NCBI GenBank assembly: GCA_963841935.1
Contig: CAWJEP010000005.1
Location: 164,003 to 228,002 of the forward strand
Origin: an uncultured bacterium
GTDB taxonomy: Bacteria > Patescibacteriota > Minisyncoccia > Phycocordibacterales > UBA6065
DNA: 64,000 nt
Direction: 5' to 3'
Numbering within the stretch: position 1 is the stretch's first letter; every line of letters starts with the position of its first letter. Below are positions 1,447 to 60,012 of the stretch, piece by piece. Position numbers and translations under genes: made by a program. The notes beneath the pieces are model-generated. The model did no database searches and was not told where the DNA came from. It saw only the letters and a list, made by a program, of their open reading frames with translations.

Positions 1447-1519
1447 GAAAAGCGGCGGGTATTTTCGAGCGCGTAAGTCGGAGCGAAGCGCACAAGCGAG
1501 AAAATACCCGCCGCTTTTC
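1447..1519. repeat. Palindromic repeat element copy A (19-bp perfect inverted arms flanking the conserved 35-nt core); also serves as the rplU terminator-like hairpin
   Basis: Arms gaaaagcggcgggtatttt / aaaatacccgccgcttttc flank the core cgagcgcgtaagtcggagcgaagcgcacaagcgag. The same core recurs at 8307, 31790, 46992 and (reverse complemented) 49872. Confidence 0.85.
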
Positions 1520-1579
1520 TATGGCGATTTTTGTTATTCACAGGCTATCAACATTGGCGATGGCTTATTAAGGTTTATA

Positions 1580-6534: not shown

Positions 6535-7913
6535 TTAATTTTCCGCTTGCGCGAATTCTCCGAAATCGGCTTTCTCAATCGGCACGAAAGATGACTTGTC
6601 CTTATCGAAAGAGAGCTGAATCCTGCCGGTCGGGCCGTTCCTGTGTTTCTCAACGAGGATTTCGGTGGTGATGAAACTTTTTTCCCTGTTTTCTTCGCTG
6701 TATTTGTCTTCCTGATGAATAAACATCACGATGTCCGCGTCTTGCTCGATTGAGCCAGAGTCGCGCAAGTCGGAGAGGCGAGGGCGACCGCCGCGGCTTT
6801 CCACGGCGCGGGAAAGCTCGAGAGCGCGAGCACTGGGATATCGAATTCTTTCGCCATTTGTTTGAGCGAGCGGGAAATTTCGGTGATTTGCTGGACCAAG
6901 TTGTCGTTTTTGATGTTCGTCGGCATCATAAGCTGGAGATAGTCGACGATGACGAGGCCGAGCTTGCCTTCACGCTGTAGGCGACGAGCGACGGCGCGCA
7001 TTTTGACGATGCTGTTACTGCTTTGGTCGTCGATGTAAATCGGAGCGGTGGAAAGAGCCGCCAAGCCGTCACGAACAATGCTTAAATCTTTATCGATGTT
7101 TAATTTTCCGGTACGAAGTTTGAAAGCGTTGACGCGCGCTTCGGCGGCGAGCATCCTGTCGACAAGCTGAGGCACGGCCATTTCAAGAGAGAAAATACAA
7201 ACCGGAATCTTGCCGCGCACAGCGACATTTCTCGCGATATCGAGAGCGAGGGATGTTTTACCCATCGAGGGGCGAGCGGCAAGAATAATGAGGTCGGAAG
7301 GCTGAAGGCCGGAGAGGAGGTTGTCTATGTCTCTAAATCCTGTCGGGATGCCGCGCAGAGCGCCTTCGTTGTTGTGAATGTGGTCGAGGCGCTCCCAAGC
7401 TTCGTCAAGAGCGTCTTTGAGATTTATGATCCTGTTTTGCGGCACCATTGCCGAGACGTCGTGAATGATTTTGTTGGCCGCGTCCACTATTTCGTCCACG
7501 TTGCTATCTTCGTCCACGCCGACGTCTTTTATCATTTCTCCGGCTTCTATCATTCGCCTCATCAAAGCTTTCTTGTGGACGATGTCGGCGTAATTTTTTA
7601 TGTTCGAAGTGGACGGCACAGCGGAGACGAGCTCGCCGAGATACGCCGAACCGCCGACGGATTCGAGTTGGCCTTTTTCCGAAAGAAGGTTTGAAAGAGA
7701 GAGTAAATCTATCGGCTCGTTTTTGTTCGAGAGTTCGAAAATAGAATCCCAAATCGTCTTGTGTTTGTTCGAATAGAAAACGTCACCCGTGACAATGTCC
7801 ACGACATCGTGAATAGTGTCGGGTTTGATGATGATAGCGCCAAGCAAAGCGCGCTCGGCTTCGAGAGATTGCGGCGGTGCTTTGAGCAATGCGTCTTTGC
7901 TACGGTCTGCCAT
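6535..7913 (-). CDS. dnaB: Replicative DNA helicase DnaB, interrupted by an apparent 1-nt frameshift near 6810-6818
   Basis: The N-terminal domain and Walker A/B lie in ORF 6726-7913. The C-terminus ('SRGGRPRLSDLRDSGSIEQDADIV') continues in another frame in ORF 6535-6804. The expected 'ALSxLSRAVE' junction is missing one nucleotide. Confidence 0.8.
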
Positions 7914-7983: not shown

Positions 7984-9384
7984 TTAAGATTTTGCTCTGA
8001 CGGATGAGTCTTTTTCCGAATCCAAGACTTCATAGCCGAGTTTTTCGATTTGAATACGGATTTCGTCGGATTTGGCGAAGTCTTTGGCCGCGCGCGCTTT
8101 AGCGCGCGCGGCGAGAAGCTCCGATATTTCTTTCGGAATTTCCGCTTGAGGCGCGAAAAGTTCCAATCCCAATATTTCGTCGGCTGATTTTATGAAAGCA
8201 AGTTTTTCTTTTGCGTCAGCGTCGCTCTCCAACATATTCCAAACCTCAGCGAGAAGTTTCGGCGTATCTAAATCATCCGCGGCGAAGGAAATCGCCAATG
8301 GCGCGCGCGTAGTCTTAGCGGAGTCCTCGGAGCGCACAAGCGCGCCATTGGCGATTTCCGCAGCCTTCGCCTTTAATCTTTTGAACGCATTCGCCGCATT
8401 GTCGAGAGCTTCGAAACTAAAATTGAGCGGCGCGGAATACCTCGCGGTCAAAAGAAAATATCGGTAGGCGAGAGGAGAGTAGCCTTTTTCGACAAGCGTT
8501 GAAAGCGTCAGGAAATTGCCGGCGGATTTCGCCATTTTTCCGCTGTCGATGGTGACGAATGCGTTGTGGATCCAGTAATGTGCGAATTTTTTTCCCGTGG
8601 CGTGTTCCGATTGGGCGATTTCGTTGTTGTGATGGACGGGAATATGGTCGATGCCTCCGGTGTGAATGTCGAAAGTCTCGCCGAGAAATTTCATCGACAT
8701 CGCCGAACATTCTATGTGCCAGCCCGGGTAGCCGAGGCCGAGAGGACTTTTGAAACCCATATGGCCGTCTTTGGAAAATTTCCACAAGGCGAAATCGCGT
8801 GGATTTTTCTTTCCGCCGTCAGCCATTCGCGTCTGACTTTCGCCCAAAGGCGTCAGTCCGCCGAGCCTGCCGTAATCGGAAATTTTTGAAGTGTCAAAAT
8901 ATATTCCGTCGTCCGCGCGGTAAGTCAGACCTTTTTTATCCAACTCTTTGATAAGTTTTAGGTCGGCTTTTAGATAACGGCTCGCGCGCGGGAACTTCGT
9001 GCCTTTGGTTTCGATATTCAAAAGTTTCAAATCATTTTTGAAAGCCGATTCGTATTTGTCGGCAAGTTTCTTTAGTCCATCGAGCGTCATCGGCAAATTT
9101 TCGCGTTTGAGACCTTTGACCATTTTGTCGTCGCCCGAATCGGCGTCGGACGATAGGTGTCCGATGTCGGTAATGTTTATGACTTGTTTTATTTTGTATC
9201 CCGCCGCTTCAAATGTCCGACGCAAAGTATCGGCAAAGACATACGAACGCAAGTTTCCGATATGAGCGAAATCATAGACGGTTGGGCCGCAGTGATACAT
9301 TCCGACCTTGCCATTTTTTATCGGGACGAAAACATCTTTCTTTCCCGAAAGGGAATTTTCCAGTTTTATTTCCTGATATTTCAT
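7984..9384 (-). CDS. cysS: Cysteinyl-tRNA synthetase (carries an in-frame palindromic-element insertion)
   Basis: HIGH-region 'CGPTVYDFAHIGN' and 'KMAKSAGN' motifs. The ORF runs continuously through the repeat copy at 8291-8356. Confidence 0.9.
   Translation of the reverse strand: MKYQEIKLENSLSGKKDVFVPIKNGKVGMYHCGPTVYDFAHIGNLRSYVFADTLRRTFEAAGYKIKQVINITDIGHLSSDADSGDDKMVKGLKRENLPMTLDGLKKLADKYESAFKNDLKLLNIETKGTKFPRASRYLKADLKLIKELDKKGLTYRADDGIYFDTSKISDYGRLGGLTPLGESQTRMADGGKKNPRDFALWKFSKDGHMGFKSPLGLGYPGWHIECSAMSMKFLGETFDIHTGGIDHIPVHHNNEIAQSEHATGKKFAHYWIHNAFVTIDSGKMAKSAGNFLTLSTLVEKGYSPLAYRYFLLTARYSAPLNFSFEALDNAANAFKRLKAKAAEIANGALVRSEDSAKTTRAPLAISFAADDLDTPKLLAEVWNMLESDADAKEKLAFIKSADEILGLELFAPQAEIPKEISELLAARAKARAAKDFAKSDEIRIQIEKLGYEVLDSEKDSSVRAKS
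8291..8356. repeat. Palindromic repeat element copy B, inserted in frame within cysS (16-bp perfect inverted arms atcgccaatggcgcgc/gcgcgccattggcgat)
   Basis: Core gcgtagtcttagcggagtcctcggagcgcacaagc belongs to the same family as 1466-1500. It translates as ...EIANGALVRSEDSAKTTRAPLAIS... in CysRS. Confidence 0.8.
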
Positions 9385-14628: not shown

Positions 14629-15954
14629 TTATACACACAACTTGACAGCACGCTCAATTCGTGAGATTGCTGTTTTCTTTCCCAAAATAGAGCAAAGCGT
14701 AAAAGGGTCCGGAGATTTGTCTTTGCCCGATAGCGCGAACCGTAGAGCCCAAAGCACCGGTCCGCGGCCTTCTTTCTCCGAATAAGGCCAGATGACGACT
14801 TTAACCTTTTCAGCGGTAAAATCTTTGTCCGAGACTTTTTCCAGTAATGCCGCGACGGCGGTCAAATGTTTTTTCACGGCGGATAAATCCCCTTCACCTT
14901 TCCAAAGGAGTTTCTCCGGAGAGAATTTCGGCTCTTCGAAATAAAAATCAAATTCGCCTTTCTTCGCCATATCGGCAATGTCGCCGAAAGTTTCAACGCG
15001 CTCGATAATATTCGGCGTGATGCGTTTGACCATATCGTCGCTTTTACCGAGCCATTTCGCCACTTCCCTCTCCTCCTCCTTCAGGGGCATTTTTTTTATA
15101 TGCTCTTTGTTGACCCAGCGAAGTTTTTCTTCGGAAAAAATGGCGCCGGATTTCTGCACGCGTTCGAGAGAAAAAACTTTTATAAGTTCTTCTTTGGAAA
15201 ATATTTCCTGCTCGGTTCCCGGATTCCAACCGACGAGCGCCATGTAGTTAATAAGGGCTTCGGGCAGAAATCCGGCGTCGCGATATTCCGTCATAGCTTT
15301 GGCACCTCGGCGCTTGGAAAGTTTGGAACGGTCGGCGGCGAGGACCAGAGGCAAATGAGCATACTGTGGGATTTTCTCGCCCAAAGCTTCGTAGAGAAGA
15401 ATGTGGCGCGGCGTATTTGAGATATGGTCCTCGCCGCGAATGACGTGCGTGACGCCGGAATACGCGTCGTCAACGACAACCGCGAGGTGGAATACCGGCT
15501 CATCGAGCGATTTCGCCACGACAAAATCGCCAAGTTCCGTGGTGTCAAACTCCACTTTGCCTCGGATGATGTCGTCCCAAGCGACTTTCCTGTTGGGATT
15601 TTTAAATCTGATGACTTCGGCTCGGTCGCCTTCTTTTTGGATTTTTTCCTTAGAAACGTAAGCTTTGCCTTCGGCGATGAGTTTCTCCAGAGCTTTTTTA
15701 TGCGCGGCACTACGACTCGATTGTCGATACATTTCGTCGTATTCGAGGCCAAGCCACTTTAGACTTTCAATAATGTTTTCCTCGTATTTTTTTTTGGAAC
15801 GAAGAGTGTCCGTGTCTTCAATGCGTAAAATAAATTTCCCGCCTTTTTGTCTGGCGAAAAGATACGAGAAAACGGCCGTTCGATAACTTCCCGCGTGAAA
15901 AAGCCCCGTCGGAGACGGCGCGAAACGTGTGACGATGTTTTTCTTGGTTTCCAT
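14629..15954 (-). CDS. gltX: Glutamyl-tRNA synthetase
   Basis: 'APSPTGLFHAGSYRTAVFSYLFAR' (HIGH-type) and 'KLSKRRGA' (KMSKS-type) motifs. Confidence 0.88.
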   Translation of the reverse strand: METKKNIVTRFAPSPTGLFHAGSYRTAVFSYLFARQKGGKFILRIEDTDTLRSKKKYEENIIESLKWLGLEYDEMYRQSSRSAAHKKALEKLIAEGKAYVSKEKIQKEGDRAEVIRFKNPNRKVAWDDIIRGKVEFDTTELGDFVVAKSLDEPVFHLAVVVDDAYSGVTHVIRGEDHISNTPRHILLYEALGEKIPQYAHLPLVLAADRSKLSKRRGAKAMTEYRDAGFLPEALINYMALVGWNPGTEQEIFSKEELIKVFSLERVQKSGAIFSEEKLRWVNKEHIKKMPLKEEEREVAKWLGKSDDMVKRITPNIIERVETFGDIADMAKKGEFDFYFEEPKFSPEKLLWKGEGDLSAVKKHLTAVAALLEKVSDKDFTAEKVKVVIWPYSEKEGRGPVLWALRFALSGKDKSPDPFTLCSILGKKTAISRIERAVKLCV

Positions 15955-21801: not shown

Positions 21802-22758
21802 TTATCTTACGCCAATGGCTTTTCGCACGATTTCCATTTTCTTCTCGGCCGCTTCGCGAGCCCTATCGGCACCCTTTGCTAAAATTTTCAAAACTTTCTT
21901 CGGGTCGCGCGCGATTTTCTCCCTGCGCTCGCGAAGCGGCCGGATAAATGCGATGAGGTCGGCAATCAAAGTTTCTTTCAAATCCTTGTACTTGCCTTTC
22001 TTCTCCGCGTATAGTTTTTCAAGCTCGGCTTTCGAGCGGAAGAGTGAGTGAATGGCATAGACATTTTCCGGTCTTTCGCCGGAAGAATCTGTGACAATTG
22101 TCATAACAAATTTCCTTATTTCTTCATCTGTCGCGAAAAGTCCGAGGTCATTGCCGTAGCTTTTAGACATCTTCCGGCCGTCATTTCCGGGAACAACCGC
22201 GACGGTCGAGAGAATCAAATCGGTCGGCAATTTGAAAACTTCGCTGTGCGAAAGTTCTGTTGAATTTTTGCGCCGTGTCGCGCGCGTATTCGACATGTTG
22301 TTTTTGGTCCTGCCCCACCGGCACGACATCGGTGTCGTAAAGCAAAATATCCGCCGCCATAAGCATCGGGTAATTGAAAGTGCCGACAGAGATTTCCTTG
22401 TCTTTGGCTTCGGCGTTTTTGTAAGCGTGCGCGCGCATTAGATATGGCATCGTCGTGATGGTGTCGAATATCCAAGCAAGCTCGGTATGCGTCGAGAACG
22501 TCGGATTGTTTGAAGATTACAGACTTCTTCGGGTCGAGGCCGATGGCGAGATAGTCGATGGCGAGGTTCAAGATTAAGTTGCGCATTTCCGTCGCCGTTT
22601 TGAATGAGATTTAGTCCGTGATAATCGGCAATGAAAAAGTAGCAGTCGTATTTGTCCTGCAAGTCGACGAATTGCTTCATCGCGCCGAAATAATTGCCTA
22701 TATGCGGCCGTCCCGTCGGTTTGACGCCCGAAAGAAGGATTTTCTTAGCCATCGCCAA
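21802..22758 (-). pseudogene. trpS: Tryptophanyl-tRNA synthetase, fragmented into 4 reading frames by at least 3 short indels (about 22255, 22490, 22590)
   Basis: ORF pieces 22438-22758 (HIGH 'TGRPHIGNY'), 22215-22586, 22181-22450 and 21802-22329 ('KMSKS') read in order as one TrpRS of about 319 aa. Removing a single C near 22490 restores 'VLEHTELAWIFD'. Confidence 0.75.
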
Positions 22759-22773
22759 ATAATACCAAAAAAT

Positions 22774-23361
22774 CTAACTTTTTTCAGCTGTTTTAAAAAT
22801 CCTCTTTCTTAATACCGAAATCGATAATAATAGGTTTATAAAAACAAGGTAAACGGGAAAAATATATTGTGGGAGTATCCATATTTTAACCGCAGCAAAA
22901 GCCGACACGGCGTTGATTATTCCTGTGGTAAATGGGTAAACATTCTCCGTTTCGGGGTATTTCCACGCCTTTATAATTGTAGGCAACGCAGCACTTCCGT
23001 CGCTTAATATGGCAAAGAATATAGCTGTAAGCGGATCTTTGGTAATCCACCAAAATATTAGAGCAAGTATCGAAAATCCTCCGCACACCCAATCAAAAAT
23101 TTCTAGTTTCCAGTAAGAATTTTTATTGGTAAAAGAAAAAATGAATACTAGAAGCGGTCCAAAGCCGGACATAAATATTGGAAGTGCCGCCCAAGTCACT
23201 CCATCTGCGAGTGCTGCCGCCGTAGCGATAAGCGGCGCAACTGACCACATAAACCAAGTTATCCTATTCGGCTTAGTGGTCCCCCGAAGAGTGTCTCTTA
23301 TGTAAGGAAAAATTCCGGCAAGATTGGCGAGCCCTCCGACGATAACTATATATTGGAGCAT
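22774..23361 (-). CDS. Integral membrane protein (about 6 TM), unknown function
   Basis: A run of hydrophobic helices. No family assignable. Confidence 0.5.
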   Translation of the reverse strand: MLQYIVIVGGLANLAGIFPYIRDTLRGTTKPNRITWFMWSVAPLIATAAALADGVTWAALPIFMSGFGPLLVFIFSFTNKNSYWKLEIFDWVCGGFSILALIFWWITKDPLTAIFFAILSDGSAALPTIIKAWKYPETENVYPFTTGIINAVSAFAAVKIWILPQYIFPVYLVFINLLLSISVLRKRIFKTAEKS

Positions 23362-29683: not shown

Positions 29684-29816
29684 TTAATTTTTGACCTTTT
29701 TCCGTGCCGATGCCTGTGCGAGAGCACGCATATTTTTCTGCTGAAAAATTGCTCTGCTCGGCTCGTCAGCCTGCGCAAGGCTTCGCCCAAGCACCGGCAC
29801 GGAAGCCGGTTTTAAT

Positions 29817-31718
29817 TTACTTTTTTTCCTCCTTGAAGTCGGCATCTCTCACATTCCCCTCTTCCGGCGGTTTGTTCTGATTCGGCGCGGACTGCTGATT
29901 CTTCATCATCGCCTCGCCAATCTTTTGCATAGCGAGCGACAAGTCCTCGGTCGCCTTTTTGATGGCGGCGATATCCGTGCCGCCTGCCTCACCGGCAGGC
30001 AGGTCTTTTACTTTTTTGACCTCGGCGATTTTCGCTTCGACATCGGTCTTCACTTCTGCCGGAACTTTATCTGCGCCATCTCTTATCGCCTTCTCCGCCG
30101 TGTAGATAGCTTGGTCGGCAAGATTGCGAGTTTCGATTTCGTCTTTCTTGGCTTGGTCTTCGCTCGCGTGCGCTTCGGCGTCGCGTTTCATTTTCTCGAT
30201 GTCGTCTTTCGAAAGTCCCGAGCTTCCCTGGATTTTAATCGACTGCTCTTTGCCCGAAGATTTTTCTTTGGCCTTGACCGCTAGAATGCCATTTGCGTCG
30301 ATGTCAAAAGTCACTTCGACTTGAGGCATACCGCGAGGAGCCGGCGGTATGCCATCGAGGACGAACCTGCCAAGTGATTTGTTGTCTCGAGCGAGAGCTC
30401 TTTCGCCTTGAACGACGTTTATCTCAACGGACGGCTGATTGTCGGCCGCCGTGGAAAATATTTGCGAACGCGAAGCCGGAATCGTTGTGTTTTTGTCGAT
30501 GAGATGCGTCGCGACACCGCCCATCGTCTCAATGCCCAGCGTTAGCGGAATGACATCAAGAAGCAAAACGTCTTTGACGTCGCCTTTGAGAATGCCGCCC
30601 TGGATAGCCGCGCCGAGCGCCACGACTTCGTCGGGATTGACCGACTGATTGGCTTTTTTCTTGAAGTAATCCTCGACTATCTTCACCATCGCCGGCATTC
30701 TGGTCTGTCCGCCGACTAGAATGACTTCGTTGATCTCAGGAAGTTTGAAGGGAGATGCGTCCATCGCGCGTTTCGTAATCATCATCGCGCGGTCAAGGAA
30801 TTCTTGGGTAAGTTCTTCGAGTTTCGCGCGAGTGATTTTCTGGACGAGGTGAAGAGGACCGTTTACGCCGCTTGATATAAACGGAATATTGATTTCAGTT
30901 TCGATTGCCGTCGAGAGTTCGATTTTGGCTTTCTCCGCCGCGTCGTCGAGACGCTGTTTGGCGAGAACGTCTTTTCGCAAATCGACGCCGTTTTCTTTCT
31001 GAAATTGGTCCGCGAGCCAGTTGATGATTTTCTGGTCGATGTCTTTACCGCCGAGATGGGCGTCGCCGTCGGTTGATTTCACTTCGATGACATCGTCGCC
31101 GACTTCCAAGACGGAAATGTCGAATGTACCGCCGCCGAAATCGAAGACGACTATTTTTTCGTTTTTCTTTTTGTTGAATCCATAAGCGAGGGCCGCCGCC
31201 GTGGGCTCGTTTATAATGCGCATCACTTCGAGTCCGGCGATTTTTCCGGCGTCTTTGGTCGCTTGTCGCTGGCTGTCGTTGAAGTATGCGGGAACAGTGA
31301 TAACCGCTTGGGTCACCGGCTCGCCGAGGCGCGCTTCTGCGTCTTGTTTCATTTTCTGGAGAATCATCGCGGAAATTTCTTCCGGTCTTTTCCATTCGCC
31401 GTTTAGATTGACCTCAATGCCGCCGTTTGCCGCTTTGCGGCATTCGAAAGGCACCGAAGCGATGTCTTTTTGCGCCGCCGGCTCATCCCAAGAGTGGCCG
31501 ATAAATCTTTTGATTTGATAAATCGTGTTTTTGGGATTGGTCACCGACTGCCTCTTGGCCGTGACGCCGACGAGCCGTTCGCCGGTTTTCGAGACGGCGA
31601 CGATTGATGGCGTGGTGCGCATGCCTTCGCTGTTTTCGAGGATTTTCGGCTCACCACCTTCGACAACCGCTACCGCCGAGTTGGTTGTTCCTAGGTCTAT
31701 ACCGATTATTTTTGACAT
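29817..31718 (-). CDS. dnaK: Chaperone DnaK (Hsp70)
   Basis: '[12 protein letters not shown]', 'DLGGGTFD' and a C-terminal lid domain. Confidence 0.95.
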
Positions 31719-31768: not shown

Positions 31769-31843
31769 CACAGGATGTGCGATATTTTTGAGCGCGTAAG
31801 TCTTAGCGAAGCGCACAAGCGAAAAAATATCGCACATCCTGCG
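31769..31843. repeat. Palindromic repeat element copy C in the grpE-dnaK spacer (arms gcacaggatgtgcgatattttt / aaaaatatcgcacatcctgcg)
   Basis: Core gagcgcgtaagtcttagcgaagcgcacaagcga matches copies A, D and E. Confidence 0.85.
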
Positions 31844-41104: not shown

Positions 41105-41364
41105 ACGGCTTTTTCCTTTTTTAGAATCTCCGCTTTACTTTTTCCACGCAAACCGTTGTAACCGCCGACTTTCCCGTCGCTTCTGATGACGCGATGGCAA
41201 GGAATATTTTTGTCGGAATTTTTGCTCAAAATCATGCCGACGGAGCGCGCCGCGCCGGACTTACCGGCGCGGCGCGCCACTTCTTTGTACGTCAAAACTT
41301 TTCCTTTTGGAATTAAAGCGACTATTGCCAAAACTTTCTTGGAAAAATCAGAATAACGTTTCAT
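41101..41364 (-). CDS. MGMT-family DNA-binding protein (methylated-DNA-protein-cysteine methyltransferase C-terminal domain only)
   Basis: 'IPCHRVI' active-site motif. The 87-aa protein lacks the N-terminal domain. Confidence 0.75.
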   Translation of the reverse strand: MKRYSDFSKKVLAIVALIPKGKVLTYKEVARRAGKSGAARSVGMILSKNSDKNIPCHRVIRSDGKVGGYNGLRGKSKAEILKKEKAV

Positions 41365-42190
41365 TTAAAGGTTTTTCCTCGCTATTTTTTTTCGGTTTGT
41401 TGAGCTTTGCAAGCCTTGAAACTTTTGTCGACGGCTTTGCCGGTGCGACTGCGTCGAGAACCATTTTTCTGTAAGCGCAAAACTCGCATTCACGCGACGG
41501 CTCAGGCAATTCTTTCGAATCCAAGCATTTTTTGATTTCAAAAATCGTTTTCTCCACCCACGCGTCGCTACCTTTGTGGGCGATGAGGGTAATGTCAAAT
41601 TCCAACTTGCCTTCGAAAGCTTCTTTGTCTTTTTTGCCGTTGACATAGACGAAATATCCCGTGTCGGAAACTTTGAAACCGTTGCGGCGCAAAAGCCATT
41701 GATAGATTTCCATTTGGCGCTTGTATTGCGCGTCCCAACCGGAATCCGCGAGCGATTCCACTGCGGTATCTTTTGAAGTGGCTTTGTAATCAACGACGAT
41801 AAACTCGCCGTCTTTGTTGACCCAAATATCGTCTATGGCGCCGGAAATAGTCAGCCCCGTCGGCTTATGGAAAAATTCTATGCCTTTGAAATTCTCCCGC
41901 CAGACATTTAAAAGTTCGTGCGATAGCGGCACGGCGTCGACGCCGTATTTTTTCATCAAAGGGTGTGCCGTACCTGCCGCGCGATGAATGTCGAATTCTT
42001 TTTTCAAAAGAGCGTCGACGGCTAGGTTTAATGTGAATGCCGGCGGACGCGGACGAGCGACGCCCAATTTGTTGTCCAAATAGAAACATCTCCGACATTC
42101 GGTAAAAAGGTCTACCTTGGAGCGCGACAAACGAAACTTCGAACCGCCGTAATTCCAGTCCTTGCTTCTGGCTTCTCCCCTGATTTTCAT
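41348..42190 (-). CDS. PD-(D/E)xK nuclease-superfamily protein, Cas4/RecB-like, with four Cys (CxxC ... CxxC)
   Basis: 'IVVDYKATSK...EIYQWLL' core with N-terminal 'CRRC' and C-terminal 'CEFC'. No CRISPR array is nearby. Confidence 0.55.
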   Translation of the reverse strand: MKIRGEARSKDWNYGGSKFRLSRSKVDLFTECRRCFYLDNKLGVARPRPPAFTLNLAVDALLKKEFDIHRAAGTAHPLMKKYGVDAVPLSHELLNVWRENFKGIEFFHKPTGLTISGAIDDIWVNKDGEFIVVDYKATSKDTAVESLADSGWDAQYKRQMEIYQWLLRRNGFKVSDTGYFVYVNGKKDKEAFEGKLEFDITLIAHKGSDAWVEKTIFEIKKCLDSKELPEPSRECEFCAYRKMVLDAVAPAKPSTKVSRLAKLNKPKKNSEEKPLNETLF

Positions 42191-43023
42191 GCGACGCCGC
42201 AAATTAATTCCGCGTCCTCACCAATGATTTTCGCCTCGTCTTCGGAAATGCCCAGAGAAACGAGTGAATCTTTTTTCGCCAATATGTCTTTACACAATAC
42301 CAAGCCGTTCGATATGAGAATGCGGCGATTGCTTTCTGAAAGATTCGGGATGGATGTCACCGGATGTAGGCCAGCGTCTTCAATCATATGCTCGAGGTTG
42401 CCCTGCGCAGGATAGTTCCAGCCGACGAGGCGCAGTCCCTCGCAAGCGGCGTAGGCGATGGCTTTGTCGGTAAATTTAGTGTTGGTCACGAGAATACCTT
42501 GCGTCAATTTTCTGATTTTTCCGCCGAAATCAAATTGCGAGAGCGATAAGTCGTCGGTGCGGGCTTTGACGTAAAGCGCCACCTTCAAATCTGATTTTAT
42601 TCCTATTTCGTTGTGGAATTTCGCCTCAACCATAATGAGCTCTTCGCCTTTCCAAGCGACGACGTCGACTTCATGCTCGACGCATTTGCCGCGAACGATT
42701 TGATCTGTCACCGCTTCGTAGCCACGAGCGCGGAAAAGGTCGGCGACGAATTTTTCAAAAGGATAACCCGCCGGACCTAAATCCAGGATGGCCCGGCGCA
42801 AAGAATATTTATGCGCCGCCGGACGGGAATCCCTAGACAGAAGGTCAAAGGCATGAGTGTAGATTTCCGAAGTGGTCATGCCTTCTTTGAGTTCGCTCTC
42901 CACGTGGTCGGCGATTTTTTTTGTCATTTCTCTGTCGGCGCCGGTGCGAATCAAGGAGGATTCCAGTTTTTTGCGATTAAAAGTTTCTTTGGTGCCGTCG
43001 GCTTTGACGATTTCTATACTCAT
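42187..43023 (-). CDS. ATP-cone domain fused to Mrr-like restriction-endonuclease domain
   Basis: The N-terminal 'IEIVKADGTKETFNRKKLESSLIRTGAD' has ATP-cone character. 'VDVVAWKGEELIMVEAKF' is the (D/E)xK core of the Mrr/NucS-like fold. Confidence 0.55.
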   Translation of the reverse strand: MSIEIVKADGTKETFNRKKLESSLIRTGADREMTKKIADHVESELKEGMTTSEIYTHAFDLLSRDSRPAAHKYSLRRAILDLGPAGYPFEKFVADLFRARGYEAVTDQIVRGKCVEHEVDVVAWKGEELIMVEAKFHNEIGIKSDLKVALYVKARTDDLSLSQFDFGGKIRKLTQGILVTNTKFTDKAIAYAACEGLRLVGWNYPAQGNLEHMIEDAGLHPVTSIPNLSESNRRILISNGLVLCKDILAKKDSLVSLGISEDEAKIIGEDAELICGVA

Positions 43024-46507: not shown

Positions 46508-49393
46508 CTAGTTTGGAACAATAAAATTTATTATTTTGTTTTTCACGTAAATTATTTTCGACGGTGTTTTTCCGGAGAGCCATTTCTCTAATTCCGACGC
46601 GGCAAAAGCGACTGCTTTTGCCGCGTCTTCGTCGGCATCCGCGGGCACCTCAATCACCGCGCGAACTTTGCCGTTTACTTGTACGGCAATATTTACTTTG
46701 GCGTCTTTGATAAACGCTTCATCCCACTTAGGCCAATCGGAAAGATGTATGGACTTTTTGTTTCCAAGCGAGCGCCATAATTCTTCGCTTATGTGTGGAG
46801 CGAAAGGCGCGAGAAGCTTCAAATAGCTCTCAAAATCGGCGCGAGCTATTGTCGGCACCTTGTCAAAAGCGTTTTGCAAAATCATAAGCGAACTTATCGC
46901 CGTGTTGAAACGCAAATTGGCGATGTCTTCGGTAACTTTCTTGATTGTTTTGTGTAAAAGCGTGTTTGTCGAAGAAAAAACAGCCTCTGGCGAGCGCGTA
47001 GTCTTAGCGGAGTCGGCGGAGCGCACAAGCGAGCCAGAGGCTGTTTTTTCGGAGACTTTCCACACGCGTTCGATGAACCGCCGCGAGCCAATCATACTGT
47101 CGGTGGACCATGCTATGGCTTGATCGAAAGGTCCCATAAACATTTCGTAAACGCGCAAAGTGTCGGCGCCGTATGTCGCGACTATGTCGTCGGGATTTAC
47201 GACATTGCCGAAACGTTTGGACATTTTTCTGCCGTCTTCGCCCATTATGAGTCCGACCGACTGCAATTTTTTAAACGGCTCGATTGTCGAGACAACGCCA
47301 ATGTCGTAAAGAAATTTGTGCCAAAAACGCGCGTATATGAGATGGCGTGTGGCGTGCTCGGCGCCGCCCACATAAAAGTCCACGCTGTTCCAATATTTTT
47401 CTTTTTTCGGAGAAACTAAAACCTTGGAGTCTTTCGGGTCCATATATCGCAAGTAATACCAAGAGCTCCCTGCCCATTGCGGCATCGTATTCGTCTCTCG
47501 TTTCATTCCTTTGAAATTGACCCATTTAGAAATCTCAGCCAAAGGCGACTCCCCCGTTCCCGTCGGTTCGTAATATTTCACTTTCGGCAATACCACCGGC
47601 AAATCTTTTTCCGAGACCGGCACTATTTTATTTCCGTTATGAAGCACCGGGATCGGCTCACCCCAATAGCGCTGCCGTGAGAAAACCCAATCTTTCAATT
47701 TGTATTTCGTCACCCATTTTCCGCCGGCTTTTTCGATGGCGTTCCTATCGGCAAACGGTTCGTCCTTTACGGGCAACTTGAACTTTTCCGCGAACGCCGC
47801 GTCTCTCTCGTCGTGTTTCGGCACTCCCATCACGGCTCCCGTGCCGTAATCGGCAAGGACATAGTCAGCAATCCAGACCGGCACCTCTTCCCCATTCACT
47901 GGATTTACCGCCTTGATTCCTTTCAATTCAACGCCGGTTTTTTCTTTCTTTGCGTCCGTGCGCTCAATTTCCGTTTTGATTCTCGCGGCGGCGACATATT
48001 TCACGACTTCTTTTTCGTTTTTCACTTCATGCAAAAGTTTTTCCACGAGCGGATGCTCCGGAGAAAGCACGACATACGTCACGCCGAAAAGCGTGTCTGG
48101 ACGAGTAGTGAAAACTTTTATTTTTTCCGTTTGATTTTTTATGGCGAAATCGATTTCCGCGCCTTCGCTTCGGCCAATCCAATTTCTCTGCGCCTCTTTT
48201 ATGGATTCCGGCCAATCAAGAAGCGGCTTCACAATATGGCGTGGCGCGCCGTCCATTACCAAATCCCAGCCGAGTTTCGAACCTTCGGCCGTCATTGCGT
48301 CACGAACTTTTTCCTCGGGAAGCCAAGTGACTTCGTGTTTGGCTTGTTCGTCAGCTACGACAGGAGCTTGTTCGCCGTCTTTTAGTTTGAAATAAAAAGA
48401 AGTGAAATGTCCGACGCGGTTTTCGTCTTTCGGCGGATGGAAAAATGTCGAGTGGTATTGACCGGCGCTTCTTTTCACGAGCGTCAGGTTTTTAAATCCC
48501 GTCTCTTCGAATATTTCCGCTCGCGCCGCTTCTTCCGGCGTCTGGCCTTTTTCGATGCCGCCAGTGATAGGAGTCGTCCAATCCACCTTTTTCCATTTGA
48601 GAACTATAAATTTCTTCTCCGACCAGTGTTCGACAAAAGCGCATATGGCGTTTCTCGGAACAAACGGCTTGTCCAATCTCACTTTGCCCGGAACATCGCT
48701 ATTCATATGGGTGATTCCAAATTCGCCATTCGGCAATGTCTCAAAAATGTCGCCGTTTGGCAAAACATTGGTGTCCAAGTCTTTCAAAAGTCTGTCGGCG
48801 TAATCGGTGATTTTCAAAACCCACTGGCGCATCGGTTTCTTCTCGACCGGCGTGCCGCAGCGCTCGCAGCGACCGTCTTCGACGTCTTCGTTCGCGAGGC
48901 CGGTCTTACACGACGGACACCAATTTATCGGCTCGTATGATTCGTAAGCCAAGCCTTTTTCCAAAAGTTTGAGAAAAATCCATTGCGTCCATTTGTAATA
49001 TTTCGGGTCGGTCGTGTTGATTTCCCTACTCCAATCATAATCAAAACCAATGATTTCCAGCTGTTTTTTGTACCTTGCGACATTTTTCGCCACGGCCACG
49101 ACCGGATTGGTCTTGGTCAAAATGGCGTAATTTTCCGCCGGCAAGCCGAAAGCGTCGAAACCCATTGGATGTAAGACGTTGTGCCCCTGCATCCTTTTCA
49201 TTCGGGAGACGATGTCGGTCGCGATGTAGCCCTTCGGATGGCCGACATGAAGACCTTCGCCCGAAGGATACGGAAACATATCGAGAACATAAAACTTGGG
49301 CTTGGGAGAATCATCCTTGGTCGCGTATATTTTCTTTTTCGCCCACCCCTTCTGCCACTTTTTTTCTATTTTCTTATGGTCGTATTGTTTCAT
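46508..49393 (-). CDS. leuS: Leucyl-tRNA synthetase carrying (i) an inserted NUDIX hydrolase domain and (ii) an in-frame palindromic-element insertion
   Basis: 'HVGHPKGY' HIGH motif, 'KMSKRFGN' and editing/anticodon domains. A Nudix box 'GGIEKGQTPEEAARAEIFEETGF' sits between '...LKDLD' and 'WPESIKEAQRNWIGRSEG'. Start is the ATG at 49393. Confidence 0.9.
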   Translation of the reverse strand: MKQYDHKKIEKKWQKGWAKKKIYATKDDSPKPKFYVLDMFPYPSGEGLHVGHPKGYIATDIVSRMKRMQGHNVLHPMGFDAFGLPAENYAILTKTNPVVAVAKNVARYKKQLEIIGFDYDWSREINTTDPKYYKWTQWIFLKLLEKGLAYESYEPINWCPSCKTGLANEDVEDGRCERCGTPVEKKPMRQWVLKITDYADRLLKDLDTNVLPNGDIFETLPNGEFGITHMNSDVPGKVRLDKPFVPRNAICAFVEHWSEKKFIVLKWKKVDWTTPITGGIEKGQTPEEAARAEIFEETGFKNLTLVKRSAGQYHSTFFHPPKDENRVGHFTSFYFKLKDGEQAPVVADEQAKHEVTWLPEEKVRDAMTAEGSKLGWDLVMDGAPRHIVKPLLDWPESIKEAQRNWIGRSEGAEIDFAIKNQTEKIKVFTTRPDTLFGVTYVVLSPEHPLVEKLLHEVKNEKEVVKYVAAARIKTEIERTDAKKEKTGVELKGIKAVNPVNGEEVPVWIADYVLADYGTGAVMGVPKHDERDAAFAEKFKLPVKDEPFADRNAIEKAGGKWVTKYKLKDWVFSRQRYWGEPIPVLHNGNKIVPVSEKDLPVVLPKVKYYEPTGTGESPLAEISKWVNFKGMKRETNTMPQWAGSSWYYLRYMDPKDSKVLVSPKKEKYWNSVDFYVGGAEHATRHLIYARFWHKFLYDIGVVSTIEPFKKLQSVGLIMGEDGRKMSKRFGNVVNPDDIVATYGADTLRVYEMFMGPFDQAIAWSTDSMIGSRRFIERVWKVSEKTASGSLVRSADSAKTTRSPEAVFSSTNTLLHKTIKKVTEDIANLRFNTAISSLMILQNAFDKVPTIARADFESYLKLLAPFAPHISEELWRSLGNKKSIHLSDWPKWDEAFIKDAKVNIAVQVNGKVRAVIEVPADADEDAAKAVAFAASELEKWLSGKTPSKIIYVKNKIINFIVPN
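46974..47050. repeat. Palindromic repeat element copy D inserted in frame within leuS (arms aaaaaacagcctctgg / ccagaggctgtttttt)
   Basis: Core gagcgcgtagtcttagcggagtcggcggagcgcacaagcgag. It is translated as ...KTASGSLVRSADSAKTTRSPEAVFS... in LeuRS. Confidence 0.8.
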
Positions 49394-49823
49394 TTTTAAA
49401 TTTGCGCAGAGCGAGATATATGAGTGCGATGAGAGCAATGCCGAGAATGACGACTCTCATCCAGCCGTAAGCCGACGACCAATATCTGAAAGACGCTATG
49501 ACAAGCGTGAGTATTCCGGAGAACGAAAGCGATGTGGAAACCACGGCATTTGTTTTCAAAAAGAAACTTAGGACGATGAGAATGACTCCGACGGCGACGA
49601 GAGTCATAAAGACTTCCGCCTGATAATTATTTTCCGCGGCGGTGTAATTATTTGAGCAAATGACATCGTTGGATTGCGGCGTAATAACGTCCGTTTGCGG
49701 GCAGAAATCGTTATATTGTGGCTCTTGGTAAATAAGCGAAAGAGAATAATTTATGAACATATTGGCGACGATGACGATGCCAATGATGAGCGACCATTTG
49801 AGAAGTTTTGATTGCTTTTGCAT
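49374..49823 (-). CDS. Hypothetical membrane protein (3-4 TM)
   Basis: Hydrophobic helices. It overlaps the leuS start by about 20 nt. Confidence 0.5.
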   Translation of the reverse strand: MQKQSKLLKWSLIIGIVIVANMFINYSLSLIYQEPQYNDFCPQTDVITPQSNDVICSNNYTAAENNYQAEVFMTLVAVGVILIVLSFFLKTNAVVSTSLSFSGILTLVIASFRYWSSAYGWMRVVILGIALIALIYLALRKFKNETIRP

Positions 49824-49847: not shown

Positions 49848-49932
49848 AAAAATAAAAAACGCACGTATTTTCTCGCTTGTGCGCTTCGCTCCGACTTACG
49901 CGCTCGAAAAATACGTACGTTTTTTATTTTTT
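49848..49932. repeat. Palindromic repeat element copy E (core reverse-complemented relative to copies A-D; arms aaaaacgcacgtatttt / aaaatacgtacgttttt, one mismatch)
   Basis: ctcgcttgtgcgcttcgctccgacttacgcgctcg is the exact reverse complement of the core of copy A. Confidence 0.85.
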
Positions 49933-55259: not shown

Positions 55260-58200
55260 TTAACAATTCCAAATCACTCCGTTTATATCCATAATCGACG
55301 CGGCCGGCATTCCATTGACTGTTTTTATTGAAGTTTTATCGAGATTGTTTATTGTTTTTAGTTCCACGACGCAAACAGATGGGCTGACCGAAGGTGAGAT
55401 ACTCGGTGACGGGCTGACGCTTGGACTGGGAGAAACGCTCGGTGAAATTGACGGTGATGGACTGATTGATGGTGAAGCTGATGGACTTGGAGAAGTGCTC
55501 GGTGAGAGTGACGGTGAAAGTGACGACAAAGGTGACGGTGATATGGATGGCGATATCGATGGAGATTCGGATGGAGAGATAGATGGACTAAGAGACGGCG
55601 AAGGGCTGACGCTCGGTGACAAAGATGGGCTCGGACTGACAGATGGAGATACCGAGGGTGAAAGGCTTGGGCCGATGGACGGCGAAAGTGACGGCGAAAG
55701 TGATGGGCTGATACTCGGCGAGAGACTTGGCGAGAGAGACGGTGATGGAGAAACTGACGGGGAAACTGAAGGACTTAAACTTGGACTAAGAGATGGTGAG
55801 GGCGAAACCGAAGGAGAAATGCTCGGAGAAAGCGATGGTGAAAGTGATGGGCTCGGACTAACTGAAGGTGAAATGCTCGGCGAGAGAGACGGGCTGAGTG
55901 ACGGCGACAAACTCGGCGAAAGTGAAGGACTTGGAGATACGGACGGCGAAACGGACGGAGAAATACTCGGCGAGAGAGATGAACCAGCTGAAGGAGAAAC
56001 CGAGGGAGAGATACTTGGCGAAAGTGACGGACTTGGGGAAACGGACGGCGAAACCGAAGGTGAAATGCTTGGCGAGAGTGATGGGCTTGGCGAAACCGAC
56101 GGCGAAATACTCGGTGAAAGTGAAGGAGAAAGTGACGGAGACAAACTCGGCGAGAGAGACGGCGATGGAGAAACTGACGGACTAACTGAAGGACTTAAAG
56201 ATGGCGAGAGCGAGGGACTTGGTGAAGTCGAAGGTGAAACGCTTGGGCTAAGCGAAGGTGAAAGAGACGGCGAGAGACTCGGCGATAGACTTGGGCTCGG
56301 TGAAACTGAGGGTGAAACCGACGGAGAAATACTTGGCGAGAGTGAAGGGCTTGGACTAACCGATGGTGAAATACTTGGTGAAAGAGATGGAGACAAACTT
56401 GGCGAGAGACTCGGCGAAATGCTCGGGCTCGGTGAGACCGAAGGGCTGACTGATGGTGAGATGCTCGGTGAGAGTGATGGCGAAGGTGAAACCGATGGTG
56501 AGATCGATGGTGAGAGAGATGGACTAAGTGATGGAGAAAGTGATGGCGATATCGAAGGGCTTGGACTGACTGATGGTGAGACCGAAGGACTCAAACTCGG
56601 TGACAGAGACGGTGATGGCGAAACCGACGGCGAAATACTCGGTGAAAGTGAAGGAGAAAGTGACGGAGACAAACTTGGCGAGAGAGACGGCGATGGAGAA
56701 ACTGACGGACTAACTGAAGGACTTAAAGATGGCGAGAGCGAGGGACTTGGTGAAGTCGAAGGTGAAACGCTTGGGCTAAGCGAAGGTGAAAGAGACGGCG
56801 AGAGACTCGGCGATAGACTTGGGCTCGGTGAAACTGAGGGTGAAACCGACGGAGAAATACTTGGCGAGAGTGAAGGGCTTGGACTAACCGATGGTGAAAT
56901 ACTTGGTGAAAGAGATGGAGACAAACTTGGCGAGAGACTCGGCGAAATGCTCGGGCTCGGTGAGACCGAAGGGCTGACTGATGGTGAGATGCTCGGTGAG
57001 AGTGATGGCGAAGGTGAAACCGATGGTGAGATCGATGGTGAGAGAGATGGACTAAGTGATGGAGAAAGTGATGGCGATATCGAAGGGCTTGGACTGACTG
57101 ATGGTGAGACCGAAGGACTCAAACTCGGTGACAGAGACGGTGATGGCGAAACCGACGGCGAAATACTCGGTGAAAGTGAAGGAGAAAGTGACGGAGACAA
57201 ACTTGGCGAGAGAGACGGCGATGGAGAAACTGACGGACTAACTGAAGGACTTAAAGATGGCGAGAGCGAGGGACTTGGTGAAGTCGAAGGTGAAACGCTT
57301 GGGCTAAGCGAAGGTGAAAGAGACGGCGAGAGACTCGGCGATAGACTTGGGCTCGGTGAAACTGAGGGTGAAACCGACGGAGAAATACTTGGCGAGAGTG
57401 AAGGGCTTGGACTAACCGATGGTGAAATACTTGGTGAAAGAGATGGAGACAAACTTGGCGAGAGACTCGGCGAAATGCTCGGGCTCGGTGAGACCGAAGG
57501 GCTGACTGATGGTGAGATGCTCGGTGAGAGTGATGGCGAAGGTGAAACCGATGGTGAGATCGATGGTGAGAGAGATGGACTAAGTGATGGAGAAAGTGAT
57601 GGCGATATCGAAGGGCTTGGACTGACTGATGGTGAGACCGAAGGACTCAAACTCGGTGACAGAGACGGTGATGGCGAAACCGACGGCGAAATACTCGGTG
57701 AAAGTGAAGGAGAAAGTGACGGAGACAAACTTGGCGAGAGAGACGGCGATGGAGAAACTGACGGACTAACTGAAGGACTTAAAGATGGCGAGAGCGAGGG
57801 ACTTGGTGAAGTCGAAGGTGAAACGCTTGGGCTAAGCGAAGGTGAAAGAGACGGCGAGAGACTCGGCGATAGACTTGGGCTCGGTGAAACTGAGGGTGAA
57901 ACCGACGGAGAAATACTTGGCGAGAGTGAAGGGCTTGGACTAACCGATGGTGAAATACTTGGTGAAAGAGATGGAGACAAACTTGGCGAGAGACTCGGCG
58001 AAATGCTCGGGCTCGGTGAGACCGAAGGGCTGACTGATGGTGAGATGCTCGGTGAGAGTGATGGCGAAGGTGAAACCGATGGTGAGATCGATGGTGAGAG
58101 AGATGGACTAAGTGATGGAGAAAGTGATGGCGATATCGAAGGGCTTGGACTGACTGATGGTGAGACCGAAGGACTCAAACTCGGTGACAGAGACGGTGAT

Positions 58201-60012
58201 GGCGAAACCGACGGCGAAATACTCGGTGAAAGTGAAGGAGAAAGTGACGGAGACAAACTTGGCGAGAGAGACGGCGATGGAGAAACTGACGGACTAACTG
58301 AAGGACTTAAAGATGGCGAGAGCGAGGGACTTGGTGAAGTCGAAGGTGAAACGCTTGGGCTAAGCGAAGGTGAAAGAGACGGCGAGAGACTCGGCGAAAT
58401 GCTCGGGCTCGGTGAGACCGAAGGGCTGACTGATGGTGAGATGCTCGGTGAGAGTGATGGCGAAGGTGAAACCGATGGTGAGATCGATGGTGAGAGAGAT
58501 GGACTAAGTGATGGAGAAAGTGATGGCGATATCGAAGGGCTTGGACTGACTGATGGTGAGACCGAAGGACTCAAACTCGGTGACAGAGACGGTGATGGCG
58601 AAACCGACGGCGAAATACTCGGTGAAAGTGAAGGAGAAAGTGACGGAGACAAACTCGGCGAGAGAGACGGCGATGGAGAAACTGACGGACTAACTGAAGG
58701 ACTTAAAGATGGCGAGAGACTCGGCGATAGACTTGGGCTCGGTGAAACTGACGGACTGACTGAAGGACTTAAAGATGGCGAGAGCGAGGGACTTGGTGAA
58801 GTCGAAGGTGAAATGCTCGGCGAGAGAGAGGGCTGAAAGTGACGGCGAGAGACTCGGCGATAGACTTGGGCTCGGTGAAACTGAGGGTGAAACCGACGGA
58901 GAAATACTTGGCGAGAGTGAAGGGCTTGGACTAACCGATGGTGAAATACTTGGTGAAAGAGATGGAGACAAACTTGGCGAGAGACTCGGCGAAATGCTCG
59001 GGCTCGGTGAGACCGAAGGGCTGACTGATGGTGAGATGCTCGGTGAGAGTGATGGCGAAGGTGAAACCGATGGTGAGATCGATGGTGAGAGAGATGGACT
59101 AAGTGATGGAGAAAGTGATGGCGATATCGAAGGGCTTGGACTGACTGATGGTGAGACCGAAGGACTCAAACTCGGTGACAGAGACGGTGATGGCGAAACC
59201 GACGGCGAAATACTCGGTGAAAGTGAAGGAGAAAGTGACGGAGACAAACTCGGTGAAAGACTCGGCGAAAGACTTGGACTTGGAGATACGGAGGGTGAAA
59301 TGGACGGAGAAAGAGATGGAGAAATACTCGGACTAAGCGATGGACTAAGTGACGAAATAAACCATGTGATTTGAATGACTCCGTTTCCTCCCTGTCCTCC
59401 TGTGTTACCGTTTCTTCCCGACCCTCCACCACCGCCTCCATAGTTTGCTCCGTTAGCGCCAGTTGCGTTTACTCCTCCAGCTCCTCCGTTTCCGGCTGGA
59501 GTTCCCCCATTTGCTCCACCAGCGTGAGTTCCCGACCCATTCGCTCCGGTTCCTCCGTTTCCAGTGTTCCCGGCTCCTCCACCTCCTCCACCTCCGTTGT
59601 TGCTACCTCCGTTTCCTCCGTTTCCTCCGTTGTGTGACGTCCAAGTGACGACTCCGTTACCGGTTGTGTTGCTATTACCCCCGACTCCACGTGCGCCACC
59701 GGCGTTGCCTCCACCACCTCCACCGGCCGCCTCGATGATAAGAGTGTTGCCCGCAGTATTGAAAAATGTGGTTCCGCCAGCGCCGCCGGATGCGTTTGCG
59801 GTTCGTGTTCCGCCGTTTCCGGCGGAATAATTAAAAGCGATGTTCGGACCAGATATGGTTATAGTTGTCTGAGCCCAAGCGCCACCACCACCACCACTAC
59901 CGTTGTTGCCTCCACCACCTCCACCTCCACCTCCAATAACCTGAACAACCGCGGAAGTTGCTGTGGTGCTATTCCATGTACCGCTACCTGTAAGATTTGA
60001 TGTTGTCGCCAT
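55260..60012 (-). CDS. Giant (about 1580 aa) protein: Gly/Asn-rich N-terminal domain followed by more than 1100 aa of (S-P-S-L/I/V)n low-complexity repeat. Interrupted by one frameshift at about 58836-58850.
   Basis: ORF 58690-60012 starts with a non-repetitive Gly-rich domain and runs in frame into SPSx repeats. ORF 55260-58652 continues the same repeat. The repeat consensus gains +1 nt at about 58845. All neighbours are minus-strand. The plus-strand alternative (acidic GExxGE repeat, ORF 55315-58836) cannot be excluded. Confidence 0.55.
55400..59340. repeat. Tandem-repeat DNA: 12-nt (4-codon) units organised into 528-bp higher-order repeats (at least 4 near-identical copies at 56101-58212, plus partial copies)
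   Basis: 'accgaaggactcaaactcggtgacagagacggtgatggcgaaaccgacggcgaaatactc' recurs at 56581, 57109, 57637, 58165 (period 528) and again at 58561 (period 396). Confidence 0.9.

Follow-up and report, generated by a model that had tools for sequence, protein, structure and literature searches.

In-frame inserts in the housekeeping genes of a reduced genome are known from the Rickettsia palindromic elements (RPEs), where they form translational fusions that remain compatible with the function of the protein; other copies of RPEs are intergenic (PMC10969869, PMC3733652). Repetitive extragenic palindromic (REP) elements are small hairpins with stems of 5-13 bp, loops of 2-20 nt and an unpaired GTAG/CGTC tag at one end; their sub-families have stem residues that vary but stay complementary, G·T pairs are common in them, and strand-specific recognition as single-stranded DNA (ssDNA) has been proposed for them (PMC3733652). 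[quoted passage not shown] The present analysis concerns a perfect palindrome inside leuS, the leucyl-tRNA synthetase (LeuRS) gene, in a 64,000-nucleotide stretch from an uncultured member of the Patescibacteriota (contig CAWJEP010000005.1, positions 164,003 to 228,002; hereafter the window). Judged from sequence comparison, this palindrome has probably been inherited vertically, as one copy of a selfish hairpin repeat that is small, non-autonomous and dispersed, akin to RPE, REP and MITE elements and constituting a family of its own.

The leuS element is built in layers, which are, from the outermost inwards, a 3-bp GTC/GAC helix, a GAA/GGA purine internal loop, arms of 18 bp and a core of 41 nt. 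Pairing runs past the arms (46974-47050) across the internal loop (46971-46973/47051-47053) and into the outer helix (46968-46970/47054-47056). The features of the locus are the following.

46508 to 49393, minus strand: host gene leuS, 961 aa starting MKQYDHKK (Pfam and homologue comparison)
46968 to 47056, plus strand: whole leuS hairpin element (sequence reading and folding)
46974 to 46991, plus strand: left arm GAAAAAACAGCCTCTGGC, 18 nt, 100% complementary to the right arm
46992 to 47032, plus strand: 41-nt 'long' core GAGCGCGTAGTCTTAGCGGAGTCGGCGGAGCGCACAAGCGA (core-pattern match)
47033 to 47050, plus strand: right arm GCCAGAGGCTGTTTTTTC, EKTASG on the gene strand

The core in its '+' orientation lies on the plus strand of the window, that is, antisense to leuS, whose open reading frame (ORF; 46508..49438, minus strand, 976 codons) carries the Pfam tRNA-synt_1, editing and anticodon-binding domains. 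Read antisense in phase 0, the core gives SLVRSADSAKTTRS, and the left arm, which within the gene appears as the reverse complement of the right arm, reads PEAVFS on the minus strand. The whole element is stop-free in the LeuRS frame (...VSEKTASG SLVRSADSAKTTRS PEAVFSS..., or in a longer reading RVWKVSEKTASGSLVRSADSAKTTRSPEAVFSSTNTLLHKTIKK), and the predicted read-through peptide across the insert is SLVRSADSAKTTR. The insertion site is a variable linker before the anticodon-binding domain, RFIERVWK to LLHKTIKKVTEDI, and its equivalent in E. coli LeuRS is at about residues 695-725 rather than at the residues ~600-640 that the original prediction had proposed. LeuRS relatives at 79-85% identity, the closest of which are labelled Patescibacteria, Paceibacterota or Taylorbacteria by their sources, carry the insert at the same site. 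Every homologue at 67% identity or less lacks it, and the alignment to conserved LeuRS sequence that would have refuted the original prediction is not seen. The linker is 32 aa long, against 17 in the nearest empty orthologue and ~30 in E. coli, and that of the cysteinyl-tRNA synthetase (CysRS) discussed below is just 6 aa longer than in its homologues; because the total length is ordinary, the element has largely replaced the native linker in both enzymes. In an AlphaFold model of the C-terminal LeuRS fragment, the core-encoded SLVRSADSAKTTRSP is coil of low confidence (pLDDT <50), flanked by two confident helices. The same LeuRS also contains a NUDIX hydrolase domain, an unusual fusion (residues 271-367, window 48293-48583, minus strand; PF00293, E = 7e-12), which has the Nudix box GGIEKGQTPEEAARAEIFEETGF and follows the first half of the catalytic domain, ahead of the editing domain.

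Five copies of the element are present in the window, in leuS, in cysS and at three intergenic sites, against 0.00 core-pattern matches expected from shuffled sequence. An nhmmer profile run on the window returned these five only, with no degenerate extras, and their folding z-scores relative to shuffled sequence range from -5.8 to -8.0. The four copies outside leuS, of which the three intergenic ones all have a 33-nt core, are as follows.

8281 to 8365, plus strand: cysS copy with a long core, within ORF 7984..9384 (minus strand)
1446 to 1520, plus strand: intergenic copy with a 33-nt core, directly 3' of the rplU stop codon; 21-bp perfect arms, A/T runs, terminator-like
31771 to 31841, plus strand: intergenic short-core copy in the gap that separates a 95-aa ORF from dnaK; perfect arms of 19 bp
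49848 to 49931, minus strand: intergenic short-core copy 3' of a DUF378 gene and a short way upstream of leuS; its orthologue in the related locus L103 is a hairpin without the apex

The cysS copy has arms at 8287-8302 and 8344-8359 around a core at 8303-8343, within a perfect palindrome that spans 8287-8306 and 8340-8359; outside these lie a GAA/GCA bubble and a GGC/GCC helix, and the copy reads ALVRSEDSAKTTRA. Its core differs from that of leuS at 4 of 41 positions, in identical orientation and frame, and the insert is missing from every CysRS homologue compared. These results bear out the original prediction that leuS holds a genuine in-frame repeat element sharing its long core, orientation and frame with a copy in cysS. 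The same prediction gave the two copies different perfect arms of 16 bp; perfect they are, and distinct from those of cysS, but the leuS arms measure 18 bp and the two sets have common GRAAA...GCC..TGGC features. That the copies arose by independent insertion into two synthetase genes is likewise supported, given different genes, different arms and absence of both inserts from more distant orthologues. Inverted repeats in gltX (15144-15277) and in a trpS-like gene (21846-21942) were considered as further members and set aside, as they encode native conserved protein sequence. The dnaJ-dnaK spacer (window 29685-29819) holds a 135-nt imperfect palindrome with 37-nt arms, 73% complementary, and without the core found in the five copies (core-1); in the relative L175 the site is occupied by a nested element containing the modules GAAGCCACTCC ... 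ATCGGCG, and the same modules border the copies of L004 and L158. The window palindrome is possibly related to the hairpin family, as a diverged or coreless form.

Over all sources, 98 non-redundant copies of the family were recovered, 89 of them with full flanks, from one Patescibacteria metagenome-assembled genome (MAG) and related metagenome contigs. A first, exact pattern run on one genome per species proved too loose, its at least 102 loci being mostly chance matches in GC-rich genomes, and the taxonomic range that it gives is a lower bound; the true copies included at least 14 in MAG CAYZCB01, labelled Candidatus Saccharibacteria. A tighter pattern applied to metagenome contigs gave 107 stretches, nearly all true copies, from a few related JGI samples, and the contigs nearest to the window have 82-88% DNA identity with it. 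The pattern scan of viral contigs gave 0 family matches, which speaks against a phage-borne element. Rfam gave 0 matches in the window at gathering thresholds and, in E-value mode, generic hairpin (miRNA-precursor) matches far below threshold, and a known structured RNA family was rejected on these two scans. The literature search returned no report of a MITE-type element for these phyla. As far as the collections searched extend, the family is previously undescribed and so far restricted to a single narrow clade of Patescibacteria. The reading of L134 (2895 nt) as a composite transposon with a copy on either flank was rejected: the contig starts with an inverted copy of its own ~2540-2660 region, centred on an element, and this inversion most probably arose when the assembler folded back at the palindrome.

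The core, which occupies the apex, is nearly invariant and asymmetric (GAGCGCGTA(A)GTC ... GCGCACAAGCGA), with lengths of 32, 33 or 41 nt, the longest being the 32-nt form with a 9-nt quasi-duplication. It is borne on a stem of 16-25 bp, giving an element of 65-90 bp. While the left arms of different copies have a mean pairwise identity of 41%, stem positions 1 to 16, counted outward from the core, are 88-100% Watson-Crick paired, with all four pair types at most positions, against 27-50% for shuffled partners; real pairing reaches background by about position 26. A covariation count over 18 genic copies found 97.9% of cells paired and 15 of 16 pairs changed on both sides, with a score of 0.864 against 0.273; 0 of 500 shuffles reached the higher score, and slid controls were 33-48% paired. 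Two types of copy can be distinguished. The T type, mostly intergenic and mostly with the 33-nt core, has TATTTTY|core|RAAAATA junctions and outer ends in A/T runs, and with its GC-rich stem between such runs resembles bidirectional terminators. The G type, mostly genic, has a 32- or 41-nt core, GGC|core|GCC junctions and a GRAAA outer end, followed outward of the stem by a 3x3 internal loop with 5'-GNA on each side, opposing G·A, N·N and A·G, and then by 2-3 further base pairs. The GNA...GNA flanks could have been a 3-bp target-site duplication; since their middle bases agree no more often than at random, they are read instead as a putative structural purine bubble.

The stem carries a strand-specific signature. 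Oriented by the core '+' strand, its mismatches comprise 46 G·T and 9 A·C, or 42 and 8 after collapse to 49 loci (binomial p about 1e-6). The G·T to A·C ratio is alike in genic-sense (15:2), genic-antisense (12:2) and intergenic copies (19:5), which ties the bias to the core rather than to the host transcript. Further, the GNA/GNA bubble opposes purine to purine on the core '+' strand only, and in folding predictions the '+' strand comes out as the more stable one for 84 of 88 copies under RNA parameters and for 78 of 88 under DNA parameters. Together, these observations suggest that the hairpin matters, or mutates, as a single strand on one particular strand, for which ssDNA in copying or maintenance would be the simplest explanation, with a transcript borne by the element and a mutational bias as other possibilities. 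The idea that the '+' strand RNA terminates transcription of the upstream gene was rejected, as the intergenic copies have no sense bias relative to that gene (15 antisense, 7 sense, 6 both).

Copies within genes number 45, in ~20 housekeeping genes; all are stop-free, and none of the 45 breaks the frame. Besides LeuRS and CysRS, the hosts identified by Pfam are PolA, TopA, RNase R, ComEC, TsaD, G6PD, MurB, ParB, Alr and a coupling-protein-like ATPase, with IF2 and SecA assigned by eye. The core starts in codon phase 0 in 35 copies, in phase 1 in 10 and in phase 2 in none, and 16 of 20 host loci have phase 0 exclusively (p = 0.006). Phase 2 always contains a stop in the sense direction and is open antisense (RLCA...) but unused, while phase 0 is the sole phase open both ways, for every core variant. 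As the 41-nt core has 4 of 6 frames open, two copies would agree in frame about 1 time in 4 by chance, and the agreement of leuS with cysS is by itself weak evidence. It is better explained by phase 0 alone being open in both orientations and by the hydrophilic nature of the peptides; selection favouring hydrophilic peptides may, instead or in addition, have caused the phase-0 excess. Of the two explanations that the original prediction had offered for the shared frame, retention selected by frame is upheld by these counts, and both the peptide and the core are present in other proteins. A preferred insertion orientation, on the other hand, is not supported, given 25 sense and 20 antisense copies and reversals between orthologous sites. 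Two elements can also occupy one gene: in L139:323-490 and L154:747-910, a 32-nt core antisense and a 41-nt core sense lie ~90 nt apart in one ORF (a C-terminally anchored surface protein), both in frame.

Comparison of orthologous sites gives a picture of how the element changes. In L104 and L210, near-identical arms at the orthologous leuS site enclose a 32-nt core on the opposite strand, reading ERVVGAKRTSE, and similar flips are found in PolA, ParB, TsaD, G6PD and a surface protein, together with core-length switches and one phase switch. The leuS arms of the window and of L103 differ at 8 of 18 positions, both still being perfect palindromes. In 12 orthologous pairs, the flanks are 74% identical, the arms, whose left and right sides change in step, 75%, and the cores 93%, which corresponds to a core evolving ~3-4x slower than the coding flanks in this pattern-ascertained set.

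Absences take three forms. The whole element with both arms is absent from L145, as compared with L121, and from the ftsW/murG junction of the window, which is filled in L181 and L160, with a weak, imperfect and only possible 11-nt direct repeat around the L181 copy. The apex alone is absent from the DUF378 hairpin of L103, which keeps the outer stem without the TTTTTC-core-GAAAATAC segment; at L103:2195-2235 stands an ordinary-looking terminator hairpin, AAAAAGCGCCGCGGCAC-GTA-GTGCCGCGGCGCTTT, the apex-less counterpart of window 49848-49931 and of L030:3190-3270. L103 is the sister of the window, at 83%; since the window is filled, as is the more distant L030, parsimony favours apex loss in L103. 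One arm and the apex are absent from the tkt/recR junction of the window, where all that is left is AGATTTTTCT, the outermost 10 nt of an arm as found in the L125 copy. These three patterns are the classical deletion outcomes of long palindromes, and the model in which the arms belong to the element is therefore retained as the main one. Insertion of cores into the loops of pre-existing terminators, as a general rule, was rejected because orthologous stems are homologous yet diverged and two empty sites lack both arms.

Composites were also observed. In related contigs, core-1 elements are nested inside other conserved loop modules, which themselves lie between further palindromic arms (L199:1-260, L111, L134, L144, L201, L211, L152:2040-2300, L164, L182), the order within the outer arms being CTGCGRAACGCWWGCGCCCTCAC, a complete core-1 element and TGCGGGTTCGGTCCTCG. 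At the rplU locus such a composite stands in place of the simple core of the window, with homologous outer arms (15/22), and L152 has a third hairpin nested in core-1 at GCGA|AGC.

On the reading of the family as a dispersed selfish repeat, the following course of events might be envisaged. The hairpin would matter when single-stranded, on the core '+' strand, and the likeliest such form is ssDNA present while the element is propagated or maintained. Inserts in genes are predicted to be translated as disordered surface loops that the host protein tolerates, and selection would purge copies in frames that yield stops or unsuitable peptides. The apex may be flipped when the arms recombine or the template switches between them, or when another copy acts as donor in gene conversion, and if this happens occasionally, only phase-0 copies would survive in essential genes; phase 0 may thus predominate because the apex can flip and this phase is open both ways. 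Finally, copies could be lost by palindrome-type deletion of the apex, of one arm with the apex, or of the whole element.

Several observations weigh against the reading as a dispersed selfish repeat. No transposase, integrase, HUH or reverse transcriptase domain was found in the ~58 window ORFs of at least 150 aa, which are housekeeping or unannotated, and tblastn with Y1/RAYT consensus queries found no such gene in ~680 kb of element-bearing contigs, the positive control being detected in the unrelated locus L018. Nor is there a target-site duplication clearly above chance: flanking direct repeats of 2-3 nt are in slight excess, 20 against 9 expected, with none longer, and a classical duplication was set aside as unlikely. 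Mobility is inferred from dispersal and from presence or absence between genomes of ~75-88% nucleotide identity. The conservation of the core is inflated, because the copies were ascertained by the exact core pattern, and the strand bias could reflect a mutational process rather than selection. Moreover, the outer arm codons resemble native sequence, EK in LeuRS and SF in CysRS, the 'empty' tkt/recR site retains 10 nt of one arm, and the coreless DUF378 hairpin of L103 shares the outer stem, all of which would fit stems that are partly host-derived.

These last points lead to the possibility, considered unlikely, that the mobile unit is the apical module only, namely the core with a few inner stem bases, the arms being derived from the locus. 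Such a module would either invade the apices of hairpins or build its stem by inverted copying of the adjacent target (fold-back or template switch). The contrast between locus-specific arms and near-identical cores is what this account would predict, as are the different cores and orientations borne by the same arms at orthologous sites, the nested hairpin-in-loop composites, the L103 terminator hairpin that has its outer stem without an apex, the exact half-arm at tkt/recR set against a full palindrome in L125, and the native look of the outer codons. Yet both arms are missing at the two empty sites (L145 vs L121; window vs L181 and L160), and at DUF378 the more parsimonious course is that L103 lost its apex. 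Arms from different loci, moreover, have semi-conserved features (GRAAA at the ends, GGC or TATTTTY at the junctions, and the GNA/GNA bubble), which would be unexpected if the arms were target-derived, and pre-existing palindromes of 16-25 bp in ~20 coding regions are implausible. In a related and bolder proposal, tentative at best, the family would be a new class of hairpin element whose active unit is the conserved apex, a strand-specific ssDNA (or RNA) module that is copied, inverted and swapped between locus-specific stems and nests in loops; no transposase being identifiable, it would be driven by an unrecognised enzyme or by replication-linked fold-back.

It appears quite improbable that the element is instead a host-functional signal, whether a terminator or RNA-stability hairpin with a protein-bound loop or a site for DNA uptake, nucleoid or gyrase binding, or priming, with the genic copies as tolerated by-products. 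The intergenic subfamily, which lies at gene ends with A/T runs around a GC-rich stem, is what one would look for in a bidirectional terminator, and L103 does have an ordinary terminator hairpin at the orthologous position; the slow evolution of the core and the density of ~1 copy per 13 kb also fit. However, orientation relative to the upstream gene is not sense-biased, and since the G·T bias tracks the core rather than the transcript, a function in host mRNA does not explain it. Restriction to one narrow clade with variable presence at orthologous sites, the want of an Rfam match and the copies in essential coding regions, which are hard to justify as signals, further count against it. A protein-level module, in which the inserted peptide is selected for LeuRS and CysRS function, is extremely improbable despite the same LVRS[AE]DSAKTTR peptide in both synthetases and the retention of the insert in several related species, because the peptide, modelled as low-confidence coil, varies with orientation and phase at orthologous sites whereas the nucleotide core stays, the LeuRS reading from the other strand effectively refuting it, and because the same DNA occurs in intergenic sites and in ~20 unrelated proteins in 4 different frames.

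Other features of the window deserve mention in their own right. A DnaB helicase ORF (6726-7913, minus strand) matches only positions 1-177 of the 255-position DnaB_C profile and ends in an odd tail, ...SSFPAPWKAAAVALASPTCATLAQSSKTRTS, possibly through a frameshift, a split gene or an assembly error. A 175-aa ORF (21802-22329, minus strand) matches only the C-terminal part (profile 171-265) of a class I Trp/Tyr-tRNA synthetase, and upstream of it lies a 195-aa ORF (22774-23361, minus strand) with no Pfam match; the synthetase gene may be split or frameshifted. At 55260-58836, ORFs of 1130 aa (minus strand) and 1173 aa (plus strand) overlap on opposite strands with no Pfam match, and at most one of them is real. 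Adjacent nuclease-type genes, one PD-(D/E)XK/Cas4-like and the other a fusion of an ATP-cone with an Mrr-type restriction endonuclease, lie at 41348-43023 on the minus strand.

Patescibacteria genomes are tiny and streamlined, and are usually thought to be poor in repetitive or selfish DNA. A repeat at ~1 copy per 13 kb inside leuS, cysS, polA, topA, parB and further essential genes would mean that even such streamlined genomes are colonised and that their proteins gain lineage-specific loops from non-coding DNA. For annotation, such inserts could account for odd 'extra' segments in the housekeeping proteins of the candidate phyla radiation, and for metagenomics it is worth noting that these palindromes can corrupt assemblies through assembler fold-backs. 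With one conserved core, co-evolving stems and a transcription-independent strand bias, the dozens of natural replicates should also provide a clean system in which to study how hairpin repeats are maintained and moved.

How, then, does the family compare with known systems? Like MITEs and the Correia, ERIC and SPRITE repeats, it is non-autonomous, below 100 bp, multi-copy, dispersed and non-coding, with inverted repeats. MITEs, however, have target-site duplications and conserved terminal inverted repeats that match a parent insertion sequence, whereas here the terminal repeats vary by copy and neither a parent insertion sequence nor a clear target-site duplication was found. With REP elements and BIMEs it has in common that they are small hairpins, mostly 3' of genes and some intragenic, with complementary stem variants and G·T pairs; it departs from them in its stems of 16-25 bp, its conserved loops of 32-41 nt, its GNA/GNA ends and the occurrence of GTAG inside the core only. 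Membership in the REP/RAYT or IS200 type was rejected for lack of a terminal tag (flank consensus A|...|G) and of a Y1 gene. A folded single strand of fixed polarity would recall integron attC sites and IS200-IS605 ends, and the G·T bias, the purine bubble and the stability of the '+' strand would fit such a stage as indirect evidence. The R''/R' boxes of attC sites (RYYYAAC/GTTRRRY) are absent from the stem base, no integrase was found in the window ORFs, and no TnpA was found there or in the element-bearing contigs. Organellar GC-cluster and double-hairpin elements are likewise tiny, spread in compact genomes, enter coding regions and each other, and keep structure over sequence; we know of no report of a conserved long asymmetric loop or of a strand-specific mismatch bias in them. 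The likeness to RPEs is that of short palindromes dispersed in a reduced genome, in frame at tolerant positions of unrelated housekeeping genes and with some copies intergenic. As described, RPEs are ~100-150 bp long, conserved in sequence and in the encoded peptide and marked by a CGTC tag; compared with these descriptions, the present elements are shorter, belong to a different host clade and appear unrelated in sequence, only the apical 32-41 nt being conserved on a hypervariable but compensated stem, with the core in both orientations and no conserved peptide. The family thus lacks those defining features of MITE, REP and RPE elements that were testable. By analogy, its closest known counterparts would be the RPEs in behaviour and the REP elements in structural logic, with the classical architecture reversed, in that the loop is conserved and the stem is variable but compensated.

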